Virus record (IMG/VR): IMGVR_UViG_2571042445_000002
Source of the DNA: a virus
Taxonomy: Duplodnaviria; Heunggongvirae; Uroviricota; Caudoviricetes
Length of the DNA: 64,000 bases
Strand: one strand, 5' to 3'
Shown: one piece after another, positions 1-9,049 of the stretch
Layout of the letters: each line of letters begins with the position of its first letter
Position numbering within the stretch: position 1 is the stretch's first letter
The notes under the pieces: generated by a model
Database searches by the model: none
What the model was told of the DNA's origin: nothing
The model's input: only the letters and a program-made list of their open reading frames with translations
Position numbers and translations under genes: made by a program

Positions 1-2
1 AC

Positions 3-1172
3 GGGCGATATATCACTGACGGCCTGTCCTCTAAGGATTTCACACGCGTATTTGAACTCATCAGGAAAGAGCAAAACCGCAAACGCCGCCAGGCGAACAG
101 GACACTCACGCCGGGCAGGCTTAGGAATAAATCAGCCGAAGACATTCTTAAGCTGGGGAAAAAGAAAGGCGGCACGTTCTTTACGCGTGACGATCTGAAA
201 GGCTTCGAAAAGCTGCGAAGCAAAGCTCGCGAAAAATACGACAGCAAGACGGCTGGCATTACATACGCACAACTGGTAGCGTCCAGCCAGGCTATCGATA
301 TTAAGCGAGCAAATAACGCCGTAGACGACGGTTCTGGTATCAAAAGAGCTACGCCCGTATCTCTTCGTCACAATGTGATTAATATCCGCGTGGAAGCGTC
401 CGATATATCCGTTCACCAGCACCACATTGTCCGGGTACGTTTTGAAGAATGGGATCAGATGGTCGATGACATCGCAGAAGACGATAAATCAGCCCTGAAA
501 GTCACAAAATCACTGTGTGCCGGGCGAGTGTCTTTCGATTGTGACTGCGGTCGCCATCAATACTGGTATCGCTACATCGCCACTGCGGGTAACTTTGCCC
601 TGGCCCCGCCAAAAGAATACGCCTATCCAAAAGTTCGCAACCCTAAGCTGCAAGGCGTCGCCTGTAAACATGTGATCCACTCAATGACACGACTACAGTC
701 TGCCAGTTGGCAGATGAGTATTGCTCGTGCGCTACAAAAGGCTGCAACGCAAATTGCATTTGGTGACGATCGCCGCCGTACAACCAAACACTTCTCAAAA
801 GAAGACGAGAAGGAGTTTAATCGCAATCGTAGCAGTAAAACGAACGTTGAAGCCGCCAAACGCGAATGGAGGCTCTATCAGAAGCGCCAGGCAGCTTTAA
901 GTACAAAACTGGCGAAGGACAACGGCAAGATCGACAAGCTACGTGACCAACTGACCAGGGCCAGAAAGTTGTCAGACGCACAGAAAAAACGAGCGGCAGC
1001 AAAAGAAGCGGCCTTGCAACGTGAGAAACAGAAAAACAAGGAGCTTCAGCAACGCCTTGCCGATCAGTTCGCACTGAAGAAGCAGGCGTTCATTGATGCG
1101 CTGGTCATGGCAGGAACGTCACCTGAGCAAGCTGAAAAAATGTTTATGGAGTATGTGAAGAAAGGTTCTTAA
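3..1172 (+). CDS. hypothetical protein, 5' end outside window; SWIM-like CxC...CxH zinc-finger motif and K/E/R-rich coiled-coil C-terminus
   Basis: Frame is open from the window edge to the stop at 1172; motif FDCDCGRHQ...ACKHVIH; followed by hairpin plus T-run at 1181-1206. Confidence 0.5.
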   Translation, partial: GRYITDGLSSKDFTRVFELIRKEQNRKRRQANRTLTPGRLRNKSAEDILKLGKKKGGTFFTRDDLKGFEKLRSKAREKYDSKTAGITYAQLVASSQAIDIKRANNAVDDGSGIKRATPVSLRHNVINIRVEASDISVHQHHIVRVRFEEWDQMVDDIAEDDKSALKVTKSLCAGRVSFDCDCGRHQYWYRYIATAGNFALAPPKEYAYPKVRNPKLQGVACKHVIHSMTRLQSASWQMSIARALQKAATQIAFGDDRRRTTKHFSKEDEKEFNRNRSSKTNVEAAKREWRLYQKRQAALSTKLAKDNGKIDKLRDQLTRARKLSDAQKKRAAAKEAALQREKQKNKELQQRLADQFALKKQAFIDALVMAGTSPEQAEKMFMEYVKKGS

Positions 1173-1180
1173 TTTACAAC

Positions 1181-1206
1181 AAAGGCGGTTATCCCGCCTT
1201 TTATAT
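1181..1206. terminator. hairpin (AAAGGCGG-TTATC-CCGCCTTT) with T-run between convergent genes
   Basis: 8-bp GC-rich stem followed by TTTTATATT on + strand; lies between the stops of 3..1172 (+) and 1206..1955 (-). Confidence 0.55.
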
Positions 1207-1955
1207 TACTTGTCCTTTGATGTCGATTGAGACTCATATATTGTCTCTACGTCATCTATTAGTTTATTAATACCCCACAATCCAGTGTCTTTATAAAAAT
1301 CGCTTTCTTCAATTGCTTTTAATAAATCGGCAAAATCTTCTTGGGTGGAAATTCTTTTCTTTTTTGCTTTATATACATCGACAATTACTTTTATGCCGTG
1401 ATACAGAGCCACTCTGGCACTCTCAGTCTCTCTCTTCTTCTCTTCAATTGCAGACAATAATTTATATTGATCTTCTGTTTGCTTTTCTAGACTTAAAAGC
1501 TTGCTCTCTTTTTGCTTCAAGTTGATCTGCAACTCTTTTATTCTTGCCCTCTCTTCTAAATCAAACTCATAGTCAATGTATCTAATTCTTGCATAGTTCC
1601 TGCCTGTTGCTTTTGATATATACATTGTTATATAAGGCATTACCACTGACGCAGTGGTTCCATATATAAATGGCATAACAAAATGAGCCACAAACGGAGA
1701 TACAATGATGGGGCCAACATAAGGAAAGTGATATTTCTCACCAACCCATACTATAGACAATGTTGTATATATATCGTACTTTGATTTAAATAATATAATA
1801 ATATCCTGCCAATTAACGACAAAAAAAGAAACCACAACATATGCAAACAACTTATTGAATAACTTGTCTCTTATGGCTTCTTCTATTGTGTTCCTGACTG
1901 TGACATTTTCATCTTTATTTTCTAATGATGAATCTTTGCTCATATAAAAATTCAA
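1206..1955 (-). CDS. hypothetical membrane protein with C-terminal coiled-coil; AT-rich cargo gene
   Basis: 249-aa ORF; hydrophobic segments (FAYVVVSFFVV, IVWVGEKYHFPYVGPIIVSPFVAHFVMPFIYG) followed by charged heptad-like region; local AT-richness contrasts with neighbours. Confidence 0.45.
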   Translation of the reverse strand: MNFYMSKDSSLENKDENVTVRNTIEEAIRDKLFNKLFAYVVVSFFVVNWQDIIILFKSKYDIYTTLSIVWVGEKYHFPYVGPIIVSPFVAHFVMPFIYGTTASVVMPYITMYISKATGRNYARIRYIDYEFDLEERARIKELQINLKQKESKLLSLEKQTEDQYKLLSAIEEKKRETESARVALYHGIKVIVDVYKAKKKRISTQEDFADLLKAIEESDFYKDTGLWGINKLIDDVETIYESQSTSKDK

Positions 1956-2004
1956 ACCTTCTTATCTTTATTTTTGGTGAAGGCGGTCTTCCAGACCGCC
2001 AAAC

Positions 2005-2385
2005 TCAAACACCAACCAGGCTTTCAAGAGGAATGCCAAACTGGGAATGTAAACGACGAATCATAGGTAACGTCAAATTTCGCGTGCCATTAAGCACTTC
2101 GTAAACACGGTTTGACTTACCAATTGCCGGTTCCAGATCCTTCACTGTCAGCCCTTGCTGTTCCATACGAAACTTAATGGCTTCAATAGGTGATGGTGGC
2201 TCAATTGGGTAATGCTTTTTCTCGTACTCTTCGATGAGCAGGCACATTACTTCAAAGAAATCGCCTTCCGGTGTGTTCATTTCCGGTTCGTTATCGAACA
2301 TCGGTTCGACCGCACGCAGTGCGGCCTCATAATCTTGTTCTGTACGGATAGGTTTAATGTTCATTAATTCCAAAGGAAAGCCCAC
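2005..2385 (-). CDS. XRE-family HTH protein with HigA-like (N-terminal domain + C-terminal HTH) antitoxin architecture
   Basis: C-terminal Cro/C1-type HTH (GLTVKDLEPAIGKSNRVYEVLNGTRNLTLPMIRRL); 35 bp downstream of the higA-like gene on the same strand. Confidence 0.5.
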   Translation of the reverse strand: MGFPLELMNIKPIRTEQDYEAALRAVEPMFDNEPEMNTPEGDFFEVMCLLIEEYEKKHYPIEPPSPIEAIKFRMEQQGLTVKDLEPAIGKSNRVYEVLNGTRNLTLPMIRRLHSQFGIPLESLVGV

Positions 2386-2420
2386 TTGTTAAGTGGGCTT
2401 TTTGTATGTGTTTAACTATA

Positions 2421-2759
2421 TCAGGCTGCTTTTTTATTCAGGTTCCGCTGAGAAATAAATTTTTCAGCAGTATTGATACGACTTAACTCTTCCTGAACGC
2501 GCATATCATTTTCGACTTCCCACAGGTCTACTGCGGTCTGAAGATTAATCCAAAAATCTACAGAAGTATCGAATGCTTTTGCCAGGCGATATGCCATATC
2601 CATCGTTAGCTTACGATTGTTATTAACAAGAGCACTTACGGTGTTACGATGAACATGAAGTATTTCTGCTAACTCGTTGATCTTAAGCTCTAACGGCTCC
2701 AGGTATTCGTACAGCAGGATATCACCTACAGTCGTCGGTTTTCTGGTTGCCTGTTTCAT
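2421..2759 (-). CDS. higA: HigA-family antitoxin (HTH)
   Basis: 112 aa; HTH segment TVGDILLYEYLEPLELKINELAEILHVHRNTVSALV; directly follows toxin gene (toxin-first order typical of higBA). Confidence 0.6.
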   Translation of the reverse strand: MKQATRKPTTVGDILLYEYLEPLELKINELAEILHVHRNTVSALVNNNRKLTMDMAYRLAKAFDTSVDFWINLQTAVDLWEVENDMRVQEELSRINTAEKFISQRNLNKKAA

Positions 2760-2830
2760 TTTTTGCCCTTACTAGCGTGCGTATTAAGTGGACTCTGGTC
2801 AGTACCCGGCTCATCCGCCGGGTATTTGTT

Positions 2831-3133
2831 TTAGTATTTGTGAGGGTCGAGATACAAGTCCTCGGCCTTTCCGTTAACCCACTTAAAAATTAACCTGTAT
2901 TGCTTATTCACCCTTATTGATGAATAGCCGTTTAGCTTCCCTGACAATTCCTCATACCGATTACCTGGTGGTGATCTCAAGTCCTTCCAAGTAGTTGCAG
3001 CATTGATAATATCCAGCTTCCGCAACAATGTAATCTGAATATCAGAAGGTATCTTTTTGTGTGGTATTGAAAATTCAAAAAAATCATCAAGCCACTCATC
3101 CCTGAAATTCTTTATGTTAATCTTTTTGCTCAT
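2831..3133 (-). CDS. higB: HigB-family toxin (RelE/ParE superfamily mRNA interferase)
   Basis: 100 aa; C-terminal SIRVNKQYRLIFKWVNGKAEDLYLDPHKY resembles HigB/RelE core motifs; ATG at 3133. Confidence 0.6.
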   Translation of the reverse strand: MSKKINIKNFRDEWLDDFFEFSIPHKKIPSDIQITLLRKLDIINAATTWKDLRSPPGNRYEELSGKLNGYSSIRVNKQYRLIFKWVNGKAEDLYLDPHKY

Positions 3134-3296
3134 CGATCATTTTATCCTCCATGATTATTAATGAATGTCATAATGATAGCGCACCGTTGCACCGTGCGCA
3201 AGTGCATATTGTAACAATTCCCCTCCTCCATCCAAAATCACAATCTCCCGAAAATCTTCCTTTCGATACCTGATAAATCGACCTTTGAGGACGCTT

Positions 3297-4088
3297 ATGG
3301 GCCGTTTTGATGAATGGCTTGCTGATGATGCAAGCCTGATGAGAAAGGAAACAGAACATGACAGCACGCAGAGAGAAGAGACAACGACGGTTGAAGCGAA
3401 TGAAGGAAGCACAACGGAAAATGGGAATGTCAGTGCAGGGCCATTCAGTATTCTGGAAGAGCACGCCGCCACCCAATCTAATAGCCATGATAATTGGCCT
3501 GATAATGCTGGTGACTCTGTTACGGAAGTGATTGAACCTGACATCGCTCCCCTACCGGCATCGCTCGCTAACAGAGAACCAAACCAGCAGCTTAAAACCC
3601 GATATAACGGACATAAAGCGTTCAACGACCAGATCCGCGCCGATTGGATGCTCATTATTGAATCAAGCCCTGACGCGTTCGAGGCGCTTTTATACCGCCC
3701 GGCTGATGGCACCTATGGCGTCGTAAACGATGAAACAGGTGAAGAGTCTTTCACGCAACTGGACAACAACCAGCGTGAGCTTACCTATCTGGAACCGGAA
3801 ATCGTATACGTCCTGGATAACCCGGACGGAAGGGATTCGTTTCATGCCATTGATGCCGATGGAGAACAGGATGGTCTTGCTGATGAAGTGCTAATCCTGC
3901 GTATTGCTGCAAACAACGTACCTGTTGGTTCAATCCTGGAATGGAACGAAGAAATGGCGAATGGCCTCGCCCGCCGCTGGTGGTACGTGCATCGAATCTT
4001 CAGCTACGGAACACAACACGTCGGCTCCCTTTATTACTGCATCCCGGCCAGGAACTTTGATACCACTCAAAACGGAGTGATCGAATGA
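3297..4088 (+). CDS. hypothetical phage protein (first gene of a 4-gene overlapping operon)
   Basis: ATG at 3297 preceded by GAGG at 3287-3290; stop overlaps next start (ATGA at 4085). Confidence 0.45.
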   Translation: MGRFDEWLADDASLMRKETEHDSTQREETTTVEANEGSTTENGNVSAGPFSILEEHAATQSNSHDNWPDNAGDSVTEVIEPDIAPLPASLANREPNQQLKTRYNGHKAFNDQIRADWMLIIESSPDAFEALLYRPADGTYGVVNDETGEESFTQLDNNQRELTYLEPEIVYVLDNPDGRDSFHAIDADGEQDGLADEVLILRIAANNVPVGSILEWNEEMANGLARRWWYVHRIFSYGTQHVGSLYYCIPARNFDTTQNGVIE

Positions 4089-4852
4089 CACCCAACAAAA
4101 CTCTCCTGTCCCGCATTGGCGAGTGGCAGACAACGCGTACTGGAAAATTCCAGACAACTGGTCTGGAAAGAGTGGATAACGCTTTTGCTACGCTAATCAG
4201 TGACATTTTTTCTGACGTAACGCTGGTGGAACCAGCAAAAGAAGAAAGGCGCTTTGCATCATTCCTGAGTCGCCCACCAGCGGAGCGTGTTTATGTTGCC
4301 CGTTTTGATAACGCGGTCGAGTTCCTTAAAGCGGTTCGCCGTGCTAATGCCGGGCAAGGGAGAAAGCCAGAGAATCCGAACATTAATCGCGATGCACTCC
4401 CTCTGATTAATATCTCGCGCTCAATGGATATCAGCTATATCAACAATGACCAGCAGATAGACCGCAAAAGCTGTGATCACTTCTGCGAACCTGGCAGCGG
4501 TATGCCTTTAGTAGCCCTGGAATACACCCAGGCAAATCTGACGTATGACGTTACATTAATGGCGACGGATAAGGCGACCATGAGTCTGATGTGTAATTCG
4601 CTAGGAGCACGTCTTCGCTTGATGGCAGGAACGCAGTTTGAAGCAACAACCCCGCTGGTACGAGTACCCGTCCCGCTAATTTGCGCGATTCAGGATGCTA
4701 AAGACATCAGTTTTACTGATGTTTCAGCCCCGATTGGGGAAGAGCGTATTTATGCTGCACAAACGGCAATTAGTGTTATAGCAGACGTGATCACCGCCTG
4801 GGAGCTGGACGCGAAACGAATTATTACTGAAACCTCTCTGAGAATGGGGTAA
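4085..4852 (+). CDS. hypothetical phage protein
   Basis: 255-aa ORF translationally coupled to flanking genes. Confidence 0.45.
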   Translation: MTPNKTLLSRIGEWQTTRTGKFQTTGLERVDNAFATLISDIFSDVTLVEPAKEERRFASFLSRPPAERVYVARFDNAVEFLKAVRRANAGQGRKPENPNINRDALPLINISRSMDISYINNDQQIDRKSCDHFCEPGSGMPLVALEYTQANLTYDVTLMATDKATMSLMCNSLGARLRLMAGTQFEATTPLVRVPVPLICAIQDAKDISFTDVSAPIGEERIYAAQTAISVIADVITAWELDAKRIITETSLRMG

Positions 4853-4855
4853 GCC

Positions 4856-5836
4856 ATGTCCCAGGAGCTACAGCAATACTTTCTACAGTCCGTTACCATC
4901 AACGGAAACAAAGTACCCAGGGAGTGGATATTCACTGCCGTATATGTGGAAAAGGCAAACCTGCGTGCACCATTGCTGAAACTGGAAATTCACGACATTA
5001 CCGGCACCATAATTGATGACTGGAAAACAAAATACGGCGCAGCACTGGTTGCAGAGATGGGAGATCCACAAGGCAATTCAGGCACGTTTAAAACAACTTT
5101 TTTCGTAACATCTGCGGTGCTGGCTGGTGATGTCATCACGGTCATTGCAGTCAGTGAAGACGTTCGGATATTTAAGATCCCCGCCATACGGGCTAACCTG
5201 CATACAAATAAAACGCCTGATACCATTTTCAAGACGTATACCGGTACACTGAAAATCGCCTCCAGCGCATTGAAACGAAGCTGTACGTACCATCTTTCCG
5301 CCGGGGAAAAACCCTCCAAAATGCTATCTGAAATGGCCCGCGATAAAGGCGCTTTATGCTGGGCCTGCCGTGGTCAGTTTAACTTTTATACATTAGCTGA
5401 CCTTATGAAAGCCAAACCATCATTCACCTATGAAGGGAACAACCCCAGGGCGGAATACACGATTTCAAAAATGAGGCTTATACAGCAAGAGTATGCCGTT
5501 ACGGCAAATACTCAGTATCGATTTACCGGCTATTCAATGACTGAAGGCTATGTCGAATATGGCGATAGCTCACTTCCAATACGCTATATATCCGATCCGG
5601 ATATGGAAACTCTGCGCAATATGCAATTGTCGCTCGTACCCAAAATGGATATTGAGGTCGCGGGTAATCCCGACATCACGCCGGGAATGGTTATTGAGAT
5701 CCTCGTGTATCGTTACGACCAGGAAAATAAGCTGGACGAATCGTTGCCTCGTAAGCTGTTGGTGAAAAACGTAGCCCATTTTGAGGACCGGATCGGCTAT
5801 ACAACACGAATGATATTAGGAGTACCCAACCAGTGA
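4856..5836 (+). CDS. hypothetical protein, possibly baseplate hub (gpD/gp27-like)
   Basis: 326-aa ORF immediately upstream of and overlapping the spike-like gene; functional assignment is by position only. Confidence 0.4.
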   Translation: MSQELQQYFLQSVTINGNKVPREWIFTAVYVEKANLRAPLLKLEIHDITGTIIDDWKTKYGAALVAEMGDPQGNSGTFKTTFFVTSAVLAGDVITVIAVSEDVRIFKIPAIRANLHTNKTPDTIFKTYTGTLKIASSALKRSCTYHLSAGEKPSKMLSEMARDKGALCWACRGQFNFYTLADLMKAKPSFTYEGNNPRAEYTISKMRLIQQEYAVTANTQYRFTGYSMTEGYVEYGDSSLPIRYISDPDMETLRNMQLSLVPKMDIEVAGNPDITPGMVIEILVYRYDQENKLDESLPRKLLVKNVAHFEDRIGYTTRMILGVPNQ

Positions 5837-6510
5837 AACGCAGAGCGCAAATCGTAGGGACCAAACACCCTGCCGGACTTATGCGAGCGCAGGTCCGCAT
5901 ACTGCCTGACTGGAACGGTGTACCGGATGAAGACCTCCCATGGGCAGAGTATCAAATGCCTATCGGTAACGCCTTTACACCTACAGTCAGCGGCGATTTA
6001 GTCTGGGTCGAATTTCCTTATCTGGATGCTAAAGGCAGGATAGACACGCGCCGACCTTTAATCGTTGGTGCGGCGCAGGATGCCCCAGGAGGCGTACCAA
6101 ATGTGCCTCCGGAAGCCTCCGGACAAGGAAGTGCATGGTCGCCAGAAGAAGTTGATGGTGCCCCTGCCCGCCCCCAGTTTTCGGCGACTGAAGATTTTGT
6201 TATTCACCGAAACAATATCCTTGAGGTCAGAACGGCTGGCGGTGGCTATGAAATAGCAAACACCGCCGCAGGATCAAGGATAGGGATGAACGAATCCGGC
6301 CAGATTTACATAATCGGCCCGGCGAATATAGTGCTTAATGCTGGAGGTGAGGTTAACGTCAAATCAAGCAGCAAAACCAATGTATCCTCAGATGGAGACG
6401 TTAATGTAAAAGGCAGCAATGTAACCGTCGCAGCTGATGGTGATATAGCCCTGAAAGCTGGTGGCGCGCTAAAAGCAACAGCGAGCAATTTCTCCTTTGT
6501 GAAGGGATAG
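5833..6510 (+). CDS. baseplate central spike protein (gpV/Mu gp45-like)
   Basis: N-terminal OB-fold-like segment (PWAEYQMPIGNAFTPTVSGDLVWVEFPYLD) and C-terminal beta-helix-like G/V/N-rich repeats (NVKSSSKTNVSSDGDVNVKGSNVTVAADGDIALKAGG). Confidence 0.5.
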   Translation: MKRRAQIVGTKHPAGLMRAQVRILPDWNGVPDEDLPWAEYQMPIGNAFTPTVSGDLVWVEFPYLDAKGRIDTRRPLIVGAAQDAPGGVPNVPPEASGQGSAWSPEEVDGAPARPQFSATEDFVIHRNNILEVRTAGGGYEIANTAAGSRIGMNESGQIYIIGPANIVLNAGGEVNVKSSSKTNVSSDGDVNVKGSNVTVAADGDIALKAGGALKATASNFSFVKG

Positions 6511-6516
6511 CAAAAT

Positions 6517-6564
6517 GCAAAACTGTGTTAGATAATTGAGTTTTGTTTTCTAACACAGTTTTGC
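6517..6564. promoter_or_regulatory. perfect 15-bp inverted repeat (GCAAAACTGTGTTAG ... CTAACACAGTTTTGC) containing the dispersed TGTTAGA/TCTAACA operator-like motif
   Basis: Arms at 6517-6531 and 6550-6564, 18-bp spacer; ends 5 bp before the rdgC start. Confidence 0.5.
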
Positions 6565-6569
6565 TAAAC

Positions 6570-7475
6570 ATGAGATTAGTCGCCTTTAAAAACATATACG
6601 TCTATCGCCTTGCCCGCGAAATAAAACTGGACTCAACCACCGTTAGTGATGCCTTAAGCCAATTCACATTCACTCCATGCGCATCACAAGAAATGGCAAA
6701 AGTCGGATGGGTGCCGGTTCTGGCTGACAACCTGATCCATGAATACCACGGTTTTCTACTTCTCCAGCAACAGCGAGAAATTAAGCTCCTGCCCTCTCAT
6801 GTCATTAAGGAGGAAGTGCAGAAAAAAGTGGAAAAGCTCGAAAATGAGCAATCTCGTAAGCTGAAGAAGTCGGAAAAAAACACCCTGAAGGATGAAGTTC
6901 TCCACTCTTTGTTGCCTCGCGCATTCACTCGCAAATCATTGTCGCGAATCCTTATTGATCGCGACAACTATCTGGTCTTCGTAGAAGCTTCCAGCGCCAG
7001 AAAAGCTGAAGAAATGCTGGCGCTCTTACGTAAATCACTTGGCAGCCTGCCAGTGATTCCATTCACGCCGATAGAACCGCTCGAAATGACTATGACCGAA
7101 TGGTTCAAGTCAACATTTCCTCAAGGCTTTAAAGCAGGCGAAGAAGCCATATTGAAATCTCTGTTCGATGACGGCGGCGCAGTTCGTTGCAAGAAAGTAG
7201 ACCTACAGTCAGAGGAAATAATGACTCATATTGAAGCCGGAAAAGTTGCAACAACAGTTGCAATCAACTGGCAGGACCGCGCGACCTTCAGGTTAAACGA
7301 TGACATGAGCATCAAAGCACTGACGTTTTGCGATGATCTCTATGACCAGAACGATGACATCGACCGTGAAGATGTTGCCCAGCGATTTGATGCTGACTTC
7401 ATTCTGTTCACAAGCGAATTATCCGCGATGTTTAGCTCGCTGGTGGAGGCCATTGGCGGTGAAGCAGAGCATTAA
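6570..7475 (+). CDS. rdgC: recombination-associated protein RdgC
   Basis: N-terminus MRLVAFKNIYVYRL, internal LKKSEKNTLKDEVLHSLLPRAF and DIDREDVAQRFDADFIL, C-terminus GGEAEH closely parallel E. coli RdgC as recalled; no obvious SD. Confidence 0.8.
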   Translation: MRLVAFKNIYVYRLAREIKLDSTTVSDALSQFTFTPCASQEMAKVGWVPVLADNLIHEYHGFLLLQQQREIKLLPSHVIKEEVQKKVEKLENEQSRKLKKSEKNTLKDEVLHSLLPRAFTRKSLSRILIDRDNYLVFVEASSARKAEEMLALLRKSLGSLPVIPFTPIEPLEMTMTEWFKSTFPQGFKAGEEAILKSLFDDGGAVRCKKVDLQSEEIMTHIEAGKVATTVAINWQDRATFRLNDDMSIKALTFCDDLYDQNDDIDREDVAQRFDADFILFTSELSAMFSSLVEAIGGEAEH

Positions 7476-8139: not shown

Positions 8140-9049
8140 TATTGGTGCTAAATTTATTTCTTATAGCGACAATCATCGTCCTGCGGCGGAAGCCACTATC
8201 AGCCATATGCGACGTATTCGCTCGGAGGACGAATTTGATCGCCCCGTCTTTAAGTGGGTCGGCGGCAAATTTTCTGCACTGCCCATTATCTTCGAACACC
8301 TGCCCCACGGAAAACGGTTGATAGAACCTTTCGTTGGAGGTGGCGCTGTTTTCACTAATGCCGGATTTAAAAGCAACCTGCTGAACGATATCAATAATGA
8401 CCTGATTAACTTCTATCAGACATTGCAGCGTGAAGGGCATTCTCTTATCACACTGGCATATCGTTTTTTTCAGGATTACAACTCTGCTGATGCATTTTTG
8501 AATGTTCGCAATGCATTCAACAATGGTGCTTATGATTCCCTTCACCATGCAGCGGCGTTCCTGTATCTCAATCGTCATTGTTTTAATGGCGTCACTCGCT
8601 ATAACCGTAAAGGAGAGTTCAACGTCGGATATGGAAAGCAGAAATCCCCCCACTTCCCTCTCGCGGAAATGGAGGCGTTCCTGGCTGACGATATTTCAAA
8701 GTATTCGGAATTTGTGTCCGGCGATTTTGCTGGTGTAATTGAGGCTGCAGGGAATGATGATGTGATTTTCTGCGATCCCCCCTATGAACCATTGCCCGAC
8801 ACTACCGGATTTACAAATTACTCAGGGCATAGCTTTAGGTTTGAAGATCAACAACGGCTGGTGTCACTGCTGGTGGATGCCCACAGACGCGGAGCGAAAA
8901 TTGTGATAACAAACAGTGGTGCGCCTAACATTCGCGAACTTTACGTTGGCAATGGCTTCAAGGTGTATCCTATGCCATCCCGTCGCTCTGTATCCTGTAA
9001 AGCATCAACCCGAATGATAGCTAACGACATTATAGCCACGCTCAATTAA
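8132..9049 (+). CDS. dam: DNA adenine methyltransferase (Dam family, GATC-type)
   Basis: FKWVGGK...EPFVGGGAVF (motif I) and DPPY (motif IV) in Dam order; GTG start at 8132 preceded by AAGGAGGG; alternative ATG at 8207; overlaps previous gene by 8 nt. Confidence 0.8.
   Translation: MADIGAKFISYSDNHRPAAEATISHMRRIRSEDEFDRPVFKWVGGKFSALPIIFEHLPHGKRLIEPFVGGGAVFTNAGFKSNLLNDINNDLINFYQTLQREGHSLITLAYRFFQDYNSADAFLNVRNAFNNGAYDSLHHAAAFLYLNRHCFNGVTRYNRKGEFNVGYGKQKSPHFPLAEMEAFLADDISKYSEFVSGDFAGVIEAAGNDDVIFCDPPYEPLPDTTGFTNYSGHSFRFEDQQRLVSLLVDAHRRGAKIVITNSGAPNIRELYVGNGFKVYPMPSRRSVSCKASTRMIANDIIATLN

Follow-up and report, generated by a model that had tools for sequence, protein, structure and literature searches.

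Replacement of a toxin–antitoxin module has stranded a HigA-type antitoxin in a cargo slot of a D6-like phage-plasmid

The complete module described below resembles toxin–antitoxin (TA) modules of the HigBA/GraTA type (HigBA of Rts1, GraTA of Pseudomonas putida, YbaQ of Escherichia coli) in its toxin-first gene order, its RelE-fold toxin of about 100 residues, its antitoxin of about 110 residues with an N-terminal helix-turn-helix (HTH) domain, a palindrome in the promoter region and its plasmid location. The HigB-HigA pair of E. coli K-12 (PDB 5IFG and 5YCL) comprises a toxin of family PF09907 and an antitoxin with a C-terminal HTH domain. In the defence system PD-λ-2, which starts with a HigB-like gene, the B component is a HigA-like HTH domain fused to an ImmA/IrrE peptidase, and this fusion is the toxic component (Vassallo et al. 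2022, PMC9519451). For D6-like elements, a role in post-segregational killing has already been proposed for a toxin/antitoxin pair (PMC6799933). Here we analyse a 64,000-nt stretch of the virus record IMGVR_UViG_2571042445_000002 (the window), in which four minus-strand open reading frames (ORFs) at 1206–3133 encode HigB, HigA, a second HTH protein and a membrane-anchored coiled-coil protein. A preliminary description, made from the letters of the DNA, had implied that the TA pair, the additional regulator and the membrane protein belong functionally together in an abortive infection (Abi) or exclusion locus. We find instead a standard HigBA module, the antitoxin alone of a K-12-type HigBA module, and a membrane protein of an unnamed family; these parts do not amount to a demonstrated tripartite TA system.

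The history of the locus can be read from its second HTH protein, which is 119 residues long. It has an HTH_3 domain at its C-terminus, preceded by an N-terminal domain of the toxin-binding type, and aligns over its full length with HigA of E. coli K-12 (PDB 5IFG_B and 5YCL_A; residues 6–112, a distant match at E = 2e-8). On some plasmids it is labelled "HigA family antitoxin" in RefSeq. With the neighbouring HigA it has only the HTH motif in common (28% identity over 54 residues). A gene for a 100-residue PF09907 HigB, homologous to the K-12 toxin, lies 3 nt upstream of the 119-residue gene in ten related loci (L002, L003, L004, L009, L013–L015, L017, L018 and NZ_LR890273), whose antitoxins are 98–100% identical to the window copy; in NZ_LR890273 the toxin gene occupies 67078–67380. 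Since this toxin stands directly upstream in the relatives, the 119-residue protein is an orphaned antitoxin, whose own partner, a PF09907 HigB, is missing from the window. No PF09907-type toxin adjoins it at the locus or was found across the 64-kb window (best tblastn E = 0.38), nor was any other second toxin detectable there. The preliminary description was therefore right in seeing a second antitoxin-type HTH protein on the same strand with no visible toxin partner. In contrast to the K-12 HigB-HigA pair, the module in the window is incomplete, lacking both the toxin and its promoter.

The missing toxin can be traced to a precise replacement, and near-identical plasmids representing the states before and after it still circulate. 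The window is 98.3% identical to L013 and NZ_LR890273 over positions 1–2364 and 98.9% identical over positions 3235–4200, with unrelated DNA between the breakpoints at 2364/2365 and 3234/3235. On the window side the exchanged segment comprises 870 nt, with a promoter carrying the palindrome GCGCACCGT-TGC-ACCGTGCGC, the PF05015 higB gene, a hairpin, higA and a predicted terminator; on the side of the sister plasmids it comprises 390 nt, with a promoter carrying CCCAnnnTGGG palindromes and the PF09907 higB gene. An older PF09907 toxin and its promoter have thus been replaced through recombination by a PF05015 HigBA cassette, and the antitoxin has been stranded. The right breakpoint coincides with the ATG of the 119-residue gene, which is preceded in the toxin-bearing relatives by a GGAG inside the 3' end of the toxin gene and in the window by the terminator hairpin and TTGGAATTA. 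The swap took place at the start codon of the antitoxin; the orphan gene has no promoter and no Shine-Dalgarno sequence of its own and lies behind a terminator-like hairpin. The window allele is identical in nucleotide sequence to the alleles of toxin-bearing L013 and L014, so the orphaning must be very recent in the lineage of the window. One and the same membrane protein (P0016) is found behind either toxin type, which means that the TA end of the locus recombines freely.

The decay of the stranded gene can be followed across the natural plasmid population by truncation, frameshift, nonsense mutation and relaxed constraint. Among the loci that we fetched, the antitoxin is intact in all ten that bear the PF09907 toxin, and in the 24 with the PF05015 cassette it is intact in nine and broken in 15. 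Nine of the broken copies are truncated after about residue 65, through a recombination that also brings another allele of the membrane gene; five have a +1 frameshift and one has a nonsense codon. For intact versus broken copies by toxin status, Fisher's test gives p = 7e-4, a value that is only indicative as the loci are related. PLSDB contains about 21 toxin-bearing plasmids and 87 with the PF05015 cassette; in the majority of these 87 the match stops at about nucleotide 183 of the orphan gene. The antitoxin alleles of toxin-bearing loci differ at one site only, S/A106, despite a proportion of synonymous differences (pS) of up to about 0.27, and all amino-acid changes besides this shared polymorphism sit on orphan alleles. 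Given three independent lesion types and amino-acid changes confined to orphan alleles, the orphan is a dispensable relic under relaxed constraint, intact in the window but decaying in most relatives.

The element that carries the locus is a D6-like phage-plasmid: positions 1–7000 of the window are 98.9% identical to E. coli plasmid NZ_CP104667 and 83.5% identical to Escherichia phage D6. In D6 the four homologues bear the annotations toxin, antitoxin, transcriptional regulator and hypothetical protein. The plus-strand neighbours of the cassette are homologues of the P1 tail and baseplate genes 25, 7, 24, 6 and 5, followed by rdgC. In P1 itself only 3 nt separate genes 25 and 7; in D6-like elements a minus-strand cassette, which occupies 1206–3234 in the window, is inserted between the gene-25-like and the gene-7-like gene, on the strand opposite to the late tail operon. 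The gene 25/gene 7 junction is therefore an insertion slot in D6-like elements. The region was found in 101 of 5,426 complete E. coli genomes (about 2%), plasmid-borne every time, and the slot belongs to a clinically common element. Other cargo also uses it. The slot of L035 (NZ_CP099353, 1907–2446) holds only a gene for a YjaZ-family "stationary phase growth adaptation protein", with neither a TA module nor the membrane gene, and in L005–L008 a YjaZ gene has been added after the membrane gene (6823–7311). Since YjaZ occurs there both alone and appended, the slot is a general cargo hotspot of D6-like phage-plasmids.

The membrane gene has a history of its own. In distant D6/P1-like phages, with gene 7, 24 and 6 products 50–62% identical, a distant homologue occupies this site by itself, again on the opposite strand and unaccompanied by a TA module. 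Homologues also occur in several unrelated settings: behind gpD in a P2-like prophage, next to a P4-type integrase and a Ser/Thr kinase, next to an AAA_21/AAA_15 ATPase and a C5 methylase, next to UmuC and Bro-N genes, and singly in an Enterobacter chromosome. Within D6-like elements, the membrane gene is intact where the orphan antitoxin is broken, and its absence from one plasmid, the one with YjaZ only in the slot, marks it as accessory. Damaged copies are consistent with this status: the gene is split in two frames in L018 (6001–6728), and L033 (3859–4248) matches only residues 1–124. Conversely, the pair of PF09907 HigB and 119-residue antitoxin stands by itself on a conjugative Pantoea plasmid that lacks the membrane gene. 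The membrane gene is autonomous, accessory and associated with mobile elements, and it is an older tenant of the slot than the TA modules.

Its product is predicted to be an inner-membrane protein with two transmembrane segments, a cytoplasmic coiled coil of about 85 residues and a C-terminal helical bundle. Hydrophobic peaks are centred near residues 42 and 85, and a confident AlphaFold model (pLDDT 86.6) adds one long helix at 83–193 and a small helical bundle at the C-terminus. The compositional contrast noted in the preliminary description is also real: the GC content is 0.33 at 1206–1943, whereas the flanking tail genes have 0.50 and the whole window 0.48. The protein matches phrog_8191, which has no assigned function (E = 3.5e-115); its family spans several unnamed PHROGs (phrog_8191, phrog_4780 and phrog_13369), and 36 of 38 members match phrog_8191. 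Close relatives fall into 18 clusters only; every one comes from E. coli or Salmonella, most often from a contig of about 90 kb. An exhaustive profile search gave 72 cluster representatives at E ≤ 1e-3, mostly of about 200–290 residues, alike in architecture and matched over nearly their full length, and a profile re-search of a 5.8-billion-protein database added almost no further relatives.

Conservation in this family is concentrated in the membrane domain, residues 1–124, which holds 46 of the 51 invariant columns. N44 and P91 do not vary across the superfamily, S54 and P103 hardly do, and the signature N44-W45, S54, P91 and P103 is present in the window protein. Among D6-like elements, about the N-terminal third of the gene is recognisable in DNA and the remainder is beyond blastn detection. 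The ratio of nonsynonymous to synonymous substitutions (dN/dS) is 0.11–0.36 in both halves of the gene, with dS saturated between allele classes; the protein is under purifying selection, and its alleles are old, functional and shuffled by recombination. Positive selection on the C-terminus was considered and rejected, as dN/dS there is 0.2–0.36 and the diversity resembles that of old, exchanged allele classes.

The search for Abi families suggested by the preliminary description came back empty: PADLOC assigned no family to the window membrane protein, giving sporadic coiled-coil matches for relatives only, and no Abi or defence profile matched. Pfam gave a sub-threshold match to DUF6947 and nothing else, the fold search gave no informative match, and BFVD gave none at all. 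A comparison of the family profile with PDB sequences gave weak matches (E ~1e-3) to the S6 helix and C-terminal coiled coil of bacterial voltage-gated sodium channels of the NavAb/NavMs type, in the region where the second transmembrane helix runs into the coiled coil. We regard this match as no more than a compositional or architectural lead; if real, it could hint at an oligomeric helical-bundle pore.

The anatomy of the locus is modular, one module has been replaced, the stranded gene decays in a consistent pattern and the modules occur independently of one another. That a modular, orphan-antitoxin account describes the locus is highly probable; the more specific statement, that it is a mosaic cargo slot with three functionally independent modules of which one has been replaced, is likely. 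Several points weigh against this interpretation. Most loci of the census came from searches that used the membrane protein as query, which inflates its apparent constancy at the site. The orphan is intact in the window and in about one third of the orphan-type loci, and a residual function is possible. Termination at 2375–2403 and the silence of the orphan antitoxin are predictions. The defence or exclusion role considered below for the membrane protein comes with no PADLOC family, Pfam family or informative fold match. Finally, three kinds of HigBA have been captured upstream of the membrane gene, namely PF09907 HigB with the 119-residue HigA, a K-12-like pair (L019) and PF05015 HigB with the YbaQ-like HigA, and at least three such captures, on the same strand and directly upstream, may point to a functional tie instead of a site that merely permits insertion. 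The L019 locus (5200–6000) is itself of note: it is a more distant D6-like contig, with a gene 7 product 67% identical, and its pair, the third TA type, is much closer to the E. coli K-12 chromosomal pair and has a longer antitoxin.

In an alternative reading, that of the preliminary description, the four genes would form one multi-component system, analogous to tripartite TA systems or PD-λ-2: the second HTH protein would act as a regulator or as a further antitoxin, and the TA module would control the membrane protein, an Abi or exclusion effector. The genes do lie close together on the same strand, HigBA-type modules recur upstream of the membrane gene, and the 119-residue protein matches the HigA-like domain of PADLOC profile PD-Lambda-2_B with E = 7e-43. 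However, that match covers profile positions 1–119 of 402, the window protein ends at 119 residues and the peptidase domain is absent; the likeness to PD-λ-2 extends to the homologous HigA-like domain and a HigB-like first gene. HigB and the membrane protein gave no PADLOC match at E ≤ 1, including to the HigB-like A and P4-antitoxin-like C components of PD-λ-2, and membership in that system was rejected. Moreover, every gene is followed by a hairpin or terminator, the membrane gene is intact beside broken HTH genes and occurs alone without any TA module, and the PF09907 HigB/antitoxin pair occurs without the membrane gene. A single system is thus very improbable, the functional link implied in the preliminary description is not supported, and its extra HTH regulator is the leftover of a replaced module. 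A narrower pairing of the second HTH protein with the membrane protein as antitoxin and toxin was rejected as well, since the membrane gene is intact where the HTH gene is broken and occurs alone. The orphan might alternatively have been kept as an anti-addiction or immunity gene. It would then act against the PF09907 HigB encoded by rival D6-like plasmids that share its replicon type, easing their displacement without post-segregational killing. Orphan antitoxins and anti-addiction modules are a familiar concept in the TA literature, and the window likewise combines an intact antitoxin and no toxin in cis with a cognate toxin on competing replicons. Plasmids of one replicon cluster circulate with either architecture in E. 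coli, Salmonella and Shigella, and the window allele does not differ from alleles that are paired with a toxin, so its protein, if made, should bind PF09907 HigB. Retention by selection is nevertheless improbable given three independent kinds of inactivating lesion, a truncated copy on most orphan-type plasmids, amino-acid changes that accumulate only on orphan alleles, and the loss of promoter and Shine-Dalgarno sequence for a gene placed behind a terminator hairpin. In contrast to a selected anti-addiction module, the orphan shows relaxed constraint and repeated pseudogenisation and appears to be a by-product of cassette exchange.

For the membrane protein, superinfection exclusion or anti-phage defence is the most plausible role, which we propose tentatively from its context. 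It would be an accessory (moron) protein expressed in lysogeny and acting at the inner membrane, and its divergent cytoplasmic part may set specificity. P22 SieA, T4 Imm and λ RexB are prophage-encoded inner-membrane exclusion or Abi proteins, and the window protein resembles them in being a small inner-membrane protein of a temperate element, encoded on the strand opposite to the late genes by an AT-rich accessory gene with diverse alleles. The profile and fold searches gave no similarity to any of them or to any PADLOC family, nor is there any in sequence, and they are not known to have its long cytoplasmic coiled coil and C-terminal bundle. Rather unlikely, in our estimate, is that the protein serves the life cycle of the element, in lysis timing, membrane tethering in the plasmid state or tail-related assembly, or that it alters the envelope physiology of the host. 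Such roles would fit purifying selection, the lack of any defence profile match and a position in the tail cluster that is kept across D6/P1-like phages with tail proteins only about 50–60% identical; they accord poorly with the opposite strand, the terminator of its own and the AT-rich composition, with the lack of the gene in P1 and in one or more D6-like plasmids, with homologues in non-phage islands and a chromosome, and with extremely deep allele classes within elements that are otherwise 84–99% identical. It is more speculative still that phrog_8191-type proteins found a new family of single-gene inner-membrane exclusion or Abi effectors of prophages, phage-plasmids and islands, in which the deeply divergent cytoplasmic coiled coil and C-terminal part would set phage specificity and the upstream HigBA modules would supply stress- or infection-responsive transcription. 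Conserved in the slot and scattered over other mobile elements, the unnamed family is a candidate for phenotyping, and its phenotype is the loose end of a locus that is otherwise largely ordinary, is now explained and does not overturn current understanding. The history of the slot also cautions against over-reading adjoining TA-like genes as multi-component defence systems.

The resident higB-higA pair was recognised correctly in the preliminary description. HigB matches PF05015 (E = 1.2e-34; bit score 119, cut-off 27), phrog_3066, annotated as "toxin of TA system", and GraT of P. putida (6F8S_B, E = 7e-14). HigA matches TIGR02607 (E = 7.9e-30; 102.5 bits against a curated cut-off of 47.7) and is about 80% identical over 108 residues to YbaQ of E. 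coli K-12 (PDB 2EBY, E = 1e-53). The toxin gene comes first and the HigA-family HTH antitoxin gene directly downstream, an inverted order read from the sequence. By family membership the two make up a complete, self-contained and ordinary type II module, with predicted toxicity and neutralisation; by analogy, the PF05015 HigB is probably a ribosome-dependent mRNase, and the module would keep the plasmid prophage in its lineage through post-segregational killing, as expected for this family. The near-perfect 21-bp palindrome upstream of higB (3179–3199) is a candidate operator repressed by the YbaQ-like HigA. The chromosomal YbaQ of E. coli K-12 is not known to have an adjoining toxin, and host YbaQ might cross-neutralise the plasmid HigB, blunting addiction in some hosts. 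The only distinction from HigBA/GraTA-type modules is the 71-nt spacer between toxin and antitoxin genes, which contains a stable hairpin.

Two further observations concern the expression of this module. In the region 3120–3152, a strong GGAGGA Shine-Dalgarno sequence 5' of higB lies 11 nt from the higB ATG and 5 nt from an out-of-frame ATG at 3140. This ATG begins a mini-ORF of seven codons (MIDEQKD*) that runs across the higB start at 3133; judging from this arrangement, the mini-ORF could be a leader peptide or provide translational coupling that tunes toxin synthesis. The spacer hairpin at 2801–2826 has no T-run on the coding (minus) strand; read on the plus strand it is a canonical terminator followed by TTTGTTTTAG, and no plus-strand gene ends there. 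The features of the cassette are collected in Table 1.

Table 1. Features of the minus-strand cassette in the window
Feature	Position	Strand	Basis
higBA promoter/operator region (putative operator)	3134–3234	-	Left breakpoint versus toxin-bearing sisters at 3234/3235; palindrome
higB, RelE-fold HigB/GraT-type toxin, 100 aa	2831–3133	-	PF05015, phrog_3066, GraT match
Hairpin in the 71-nt higB-higA spacer	2801–2826	-	-16.2 kcal/mol, z = -4.65
higA, cognate antitoxin, N-terminal HTH, 112 aa	2421–2759	-	TIGR02607, PDB 2EBY
Terminator-like hairpin closing the swapped-in higBA cassette	2375–2403	-	-15.7 kcal/mol, then UUUCCUUUGG
870-nt replacing segment (complete HigB + HigA cassette)	2365–3234	-	Comparison with L013 and NZ_LR890273
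Orphaned E. coli K-12-type HigA antitoxin, 119 aa	2005–2364	-	PDB 5IFG_B/5YCL_A; PF09907 HigB upstream in 10 sister loci
Hairpin 3' of the orphan antitoxin gene	1982–2000	-	-16.1 kcal/mol, z = -3.4
AT-rich gene of membrane/coiled-coil protein, 245 aa, phrog_8191	1206–1943	-	Profile match, hydrophobicity, structure model
Bidirectional terminator (predicted) between the membrane gene and the convergent gene-25-like tail gene	1181–1201	.	-15.4 kcal/mol, z = -4.56

The four minus-strand ORFs lie where the preliminary description had placed them, and two of its start codons were corrected. For the second HTH gene ATG 2364 is most likely the start: the listed GTG 2385 falls within the hairpin at 2375–2403, and the product has 119 residues in D6 (orf72) as in all relatives. 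For the membrane gene the most likely start is ATG 1943, so that the protein has 245 residues in place of the 249 of the listed ORF (1206–1955). A comparably stable hairpin (-15 to -16 kcal/mol, z from -3.4 to -4.7) is found 3' of all four genes, and the one that had been noted between the second HTH gene and the AT-rich gene, at 1982–2000, is thus one of four. It is followed by a T-run in most relatives and by TTCACC in the window; because of the T-run, it is probably the terminator of the old TA operon. A promoter scan gave sites no more frequent than in shuffled sequence, and we therefore claim none for the membrane gene. Scanned for Rfam families and tRNAs, the cassette gave no meaningful match.

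Outside the cassette, some D6-like relatives (L005 and L007, 9157–9728; L030, near 8457–8687) carry a second, divergent pair of PF05015 HigB and HTH_3 antitoxin, the latter about 30% identical to the window HigA. This pair occupies the next intergenic slot, past the gene-26-like gene and beyond the left end of the window. On the other side of the cassette, after the baseplate genes, the window encodes an RdgC-family recombination-associated protein (6543–7475; PF04381, E = 1.3e-100), a placement shared with D6, where the corresponding gene is the P1 hrdC-like orf65, and with relatives in which DNA methyltransferase genes adjoin it.

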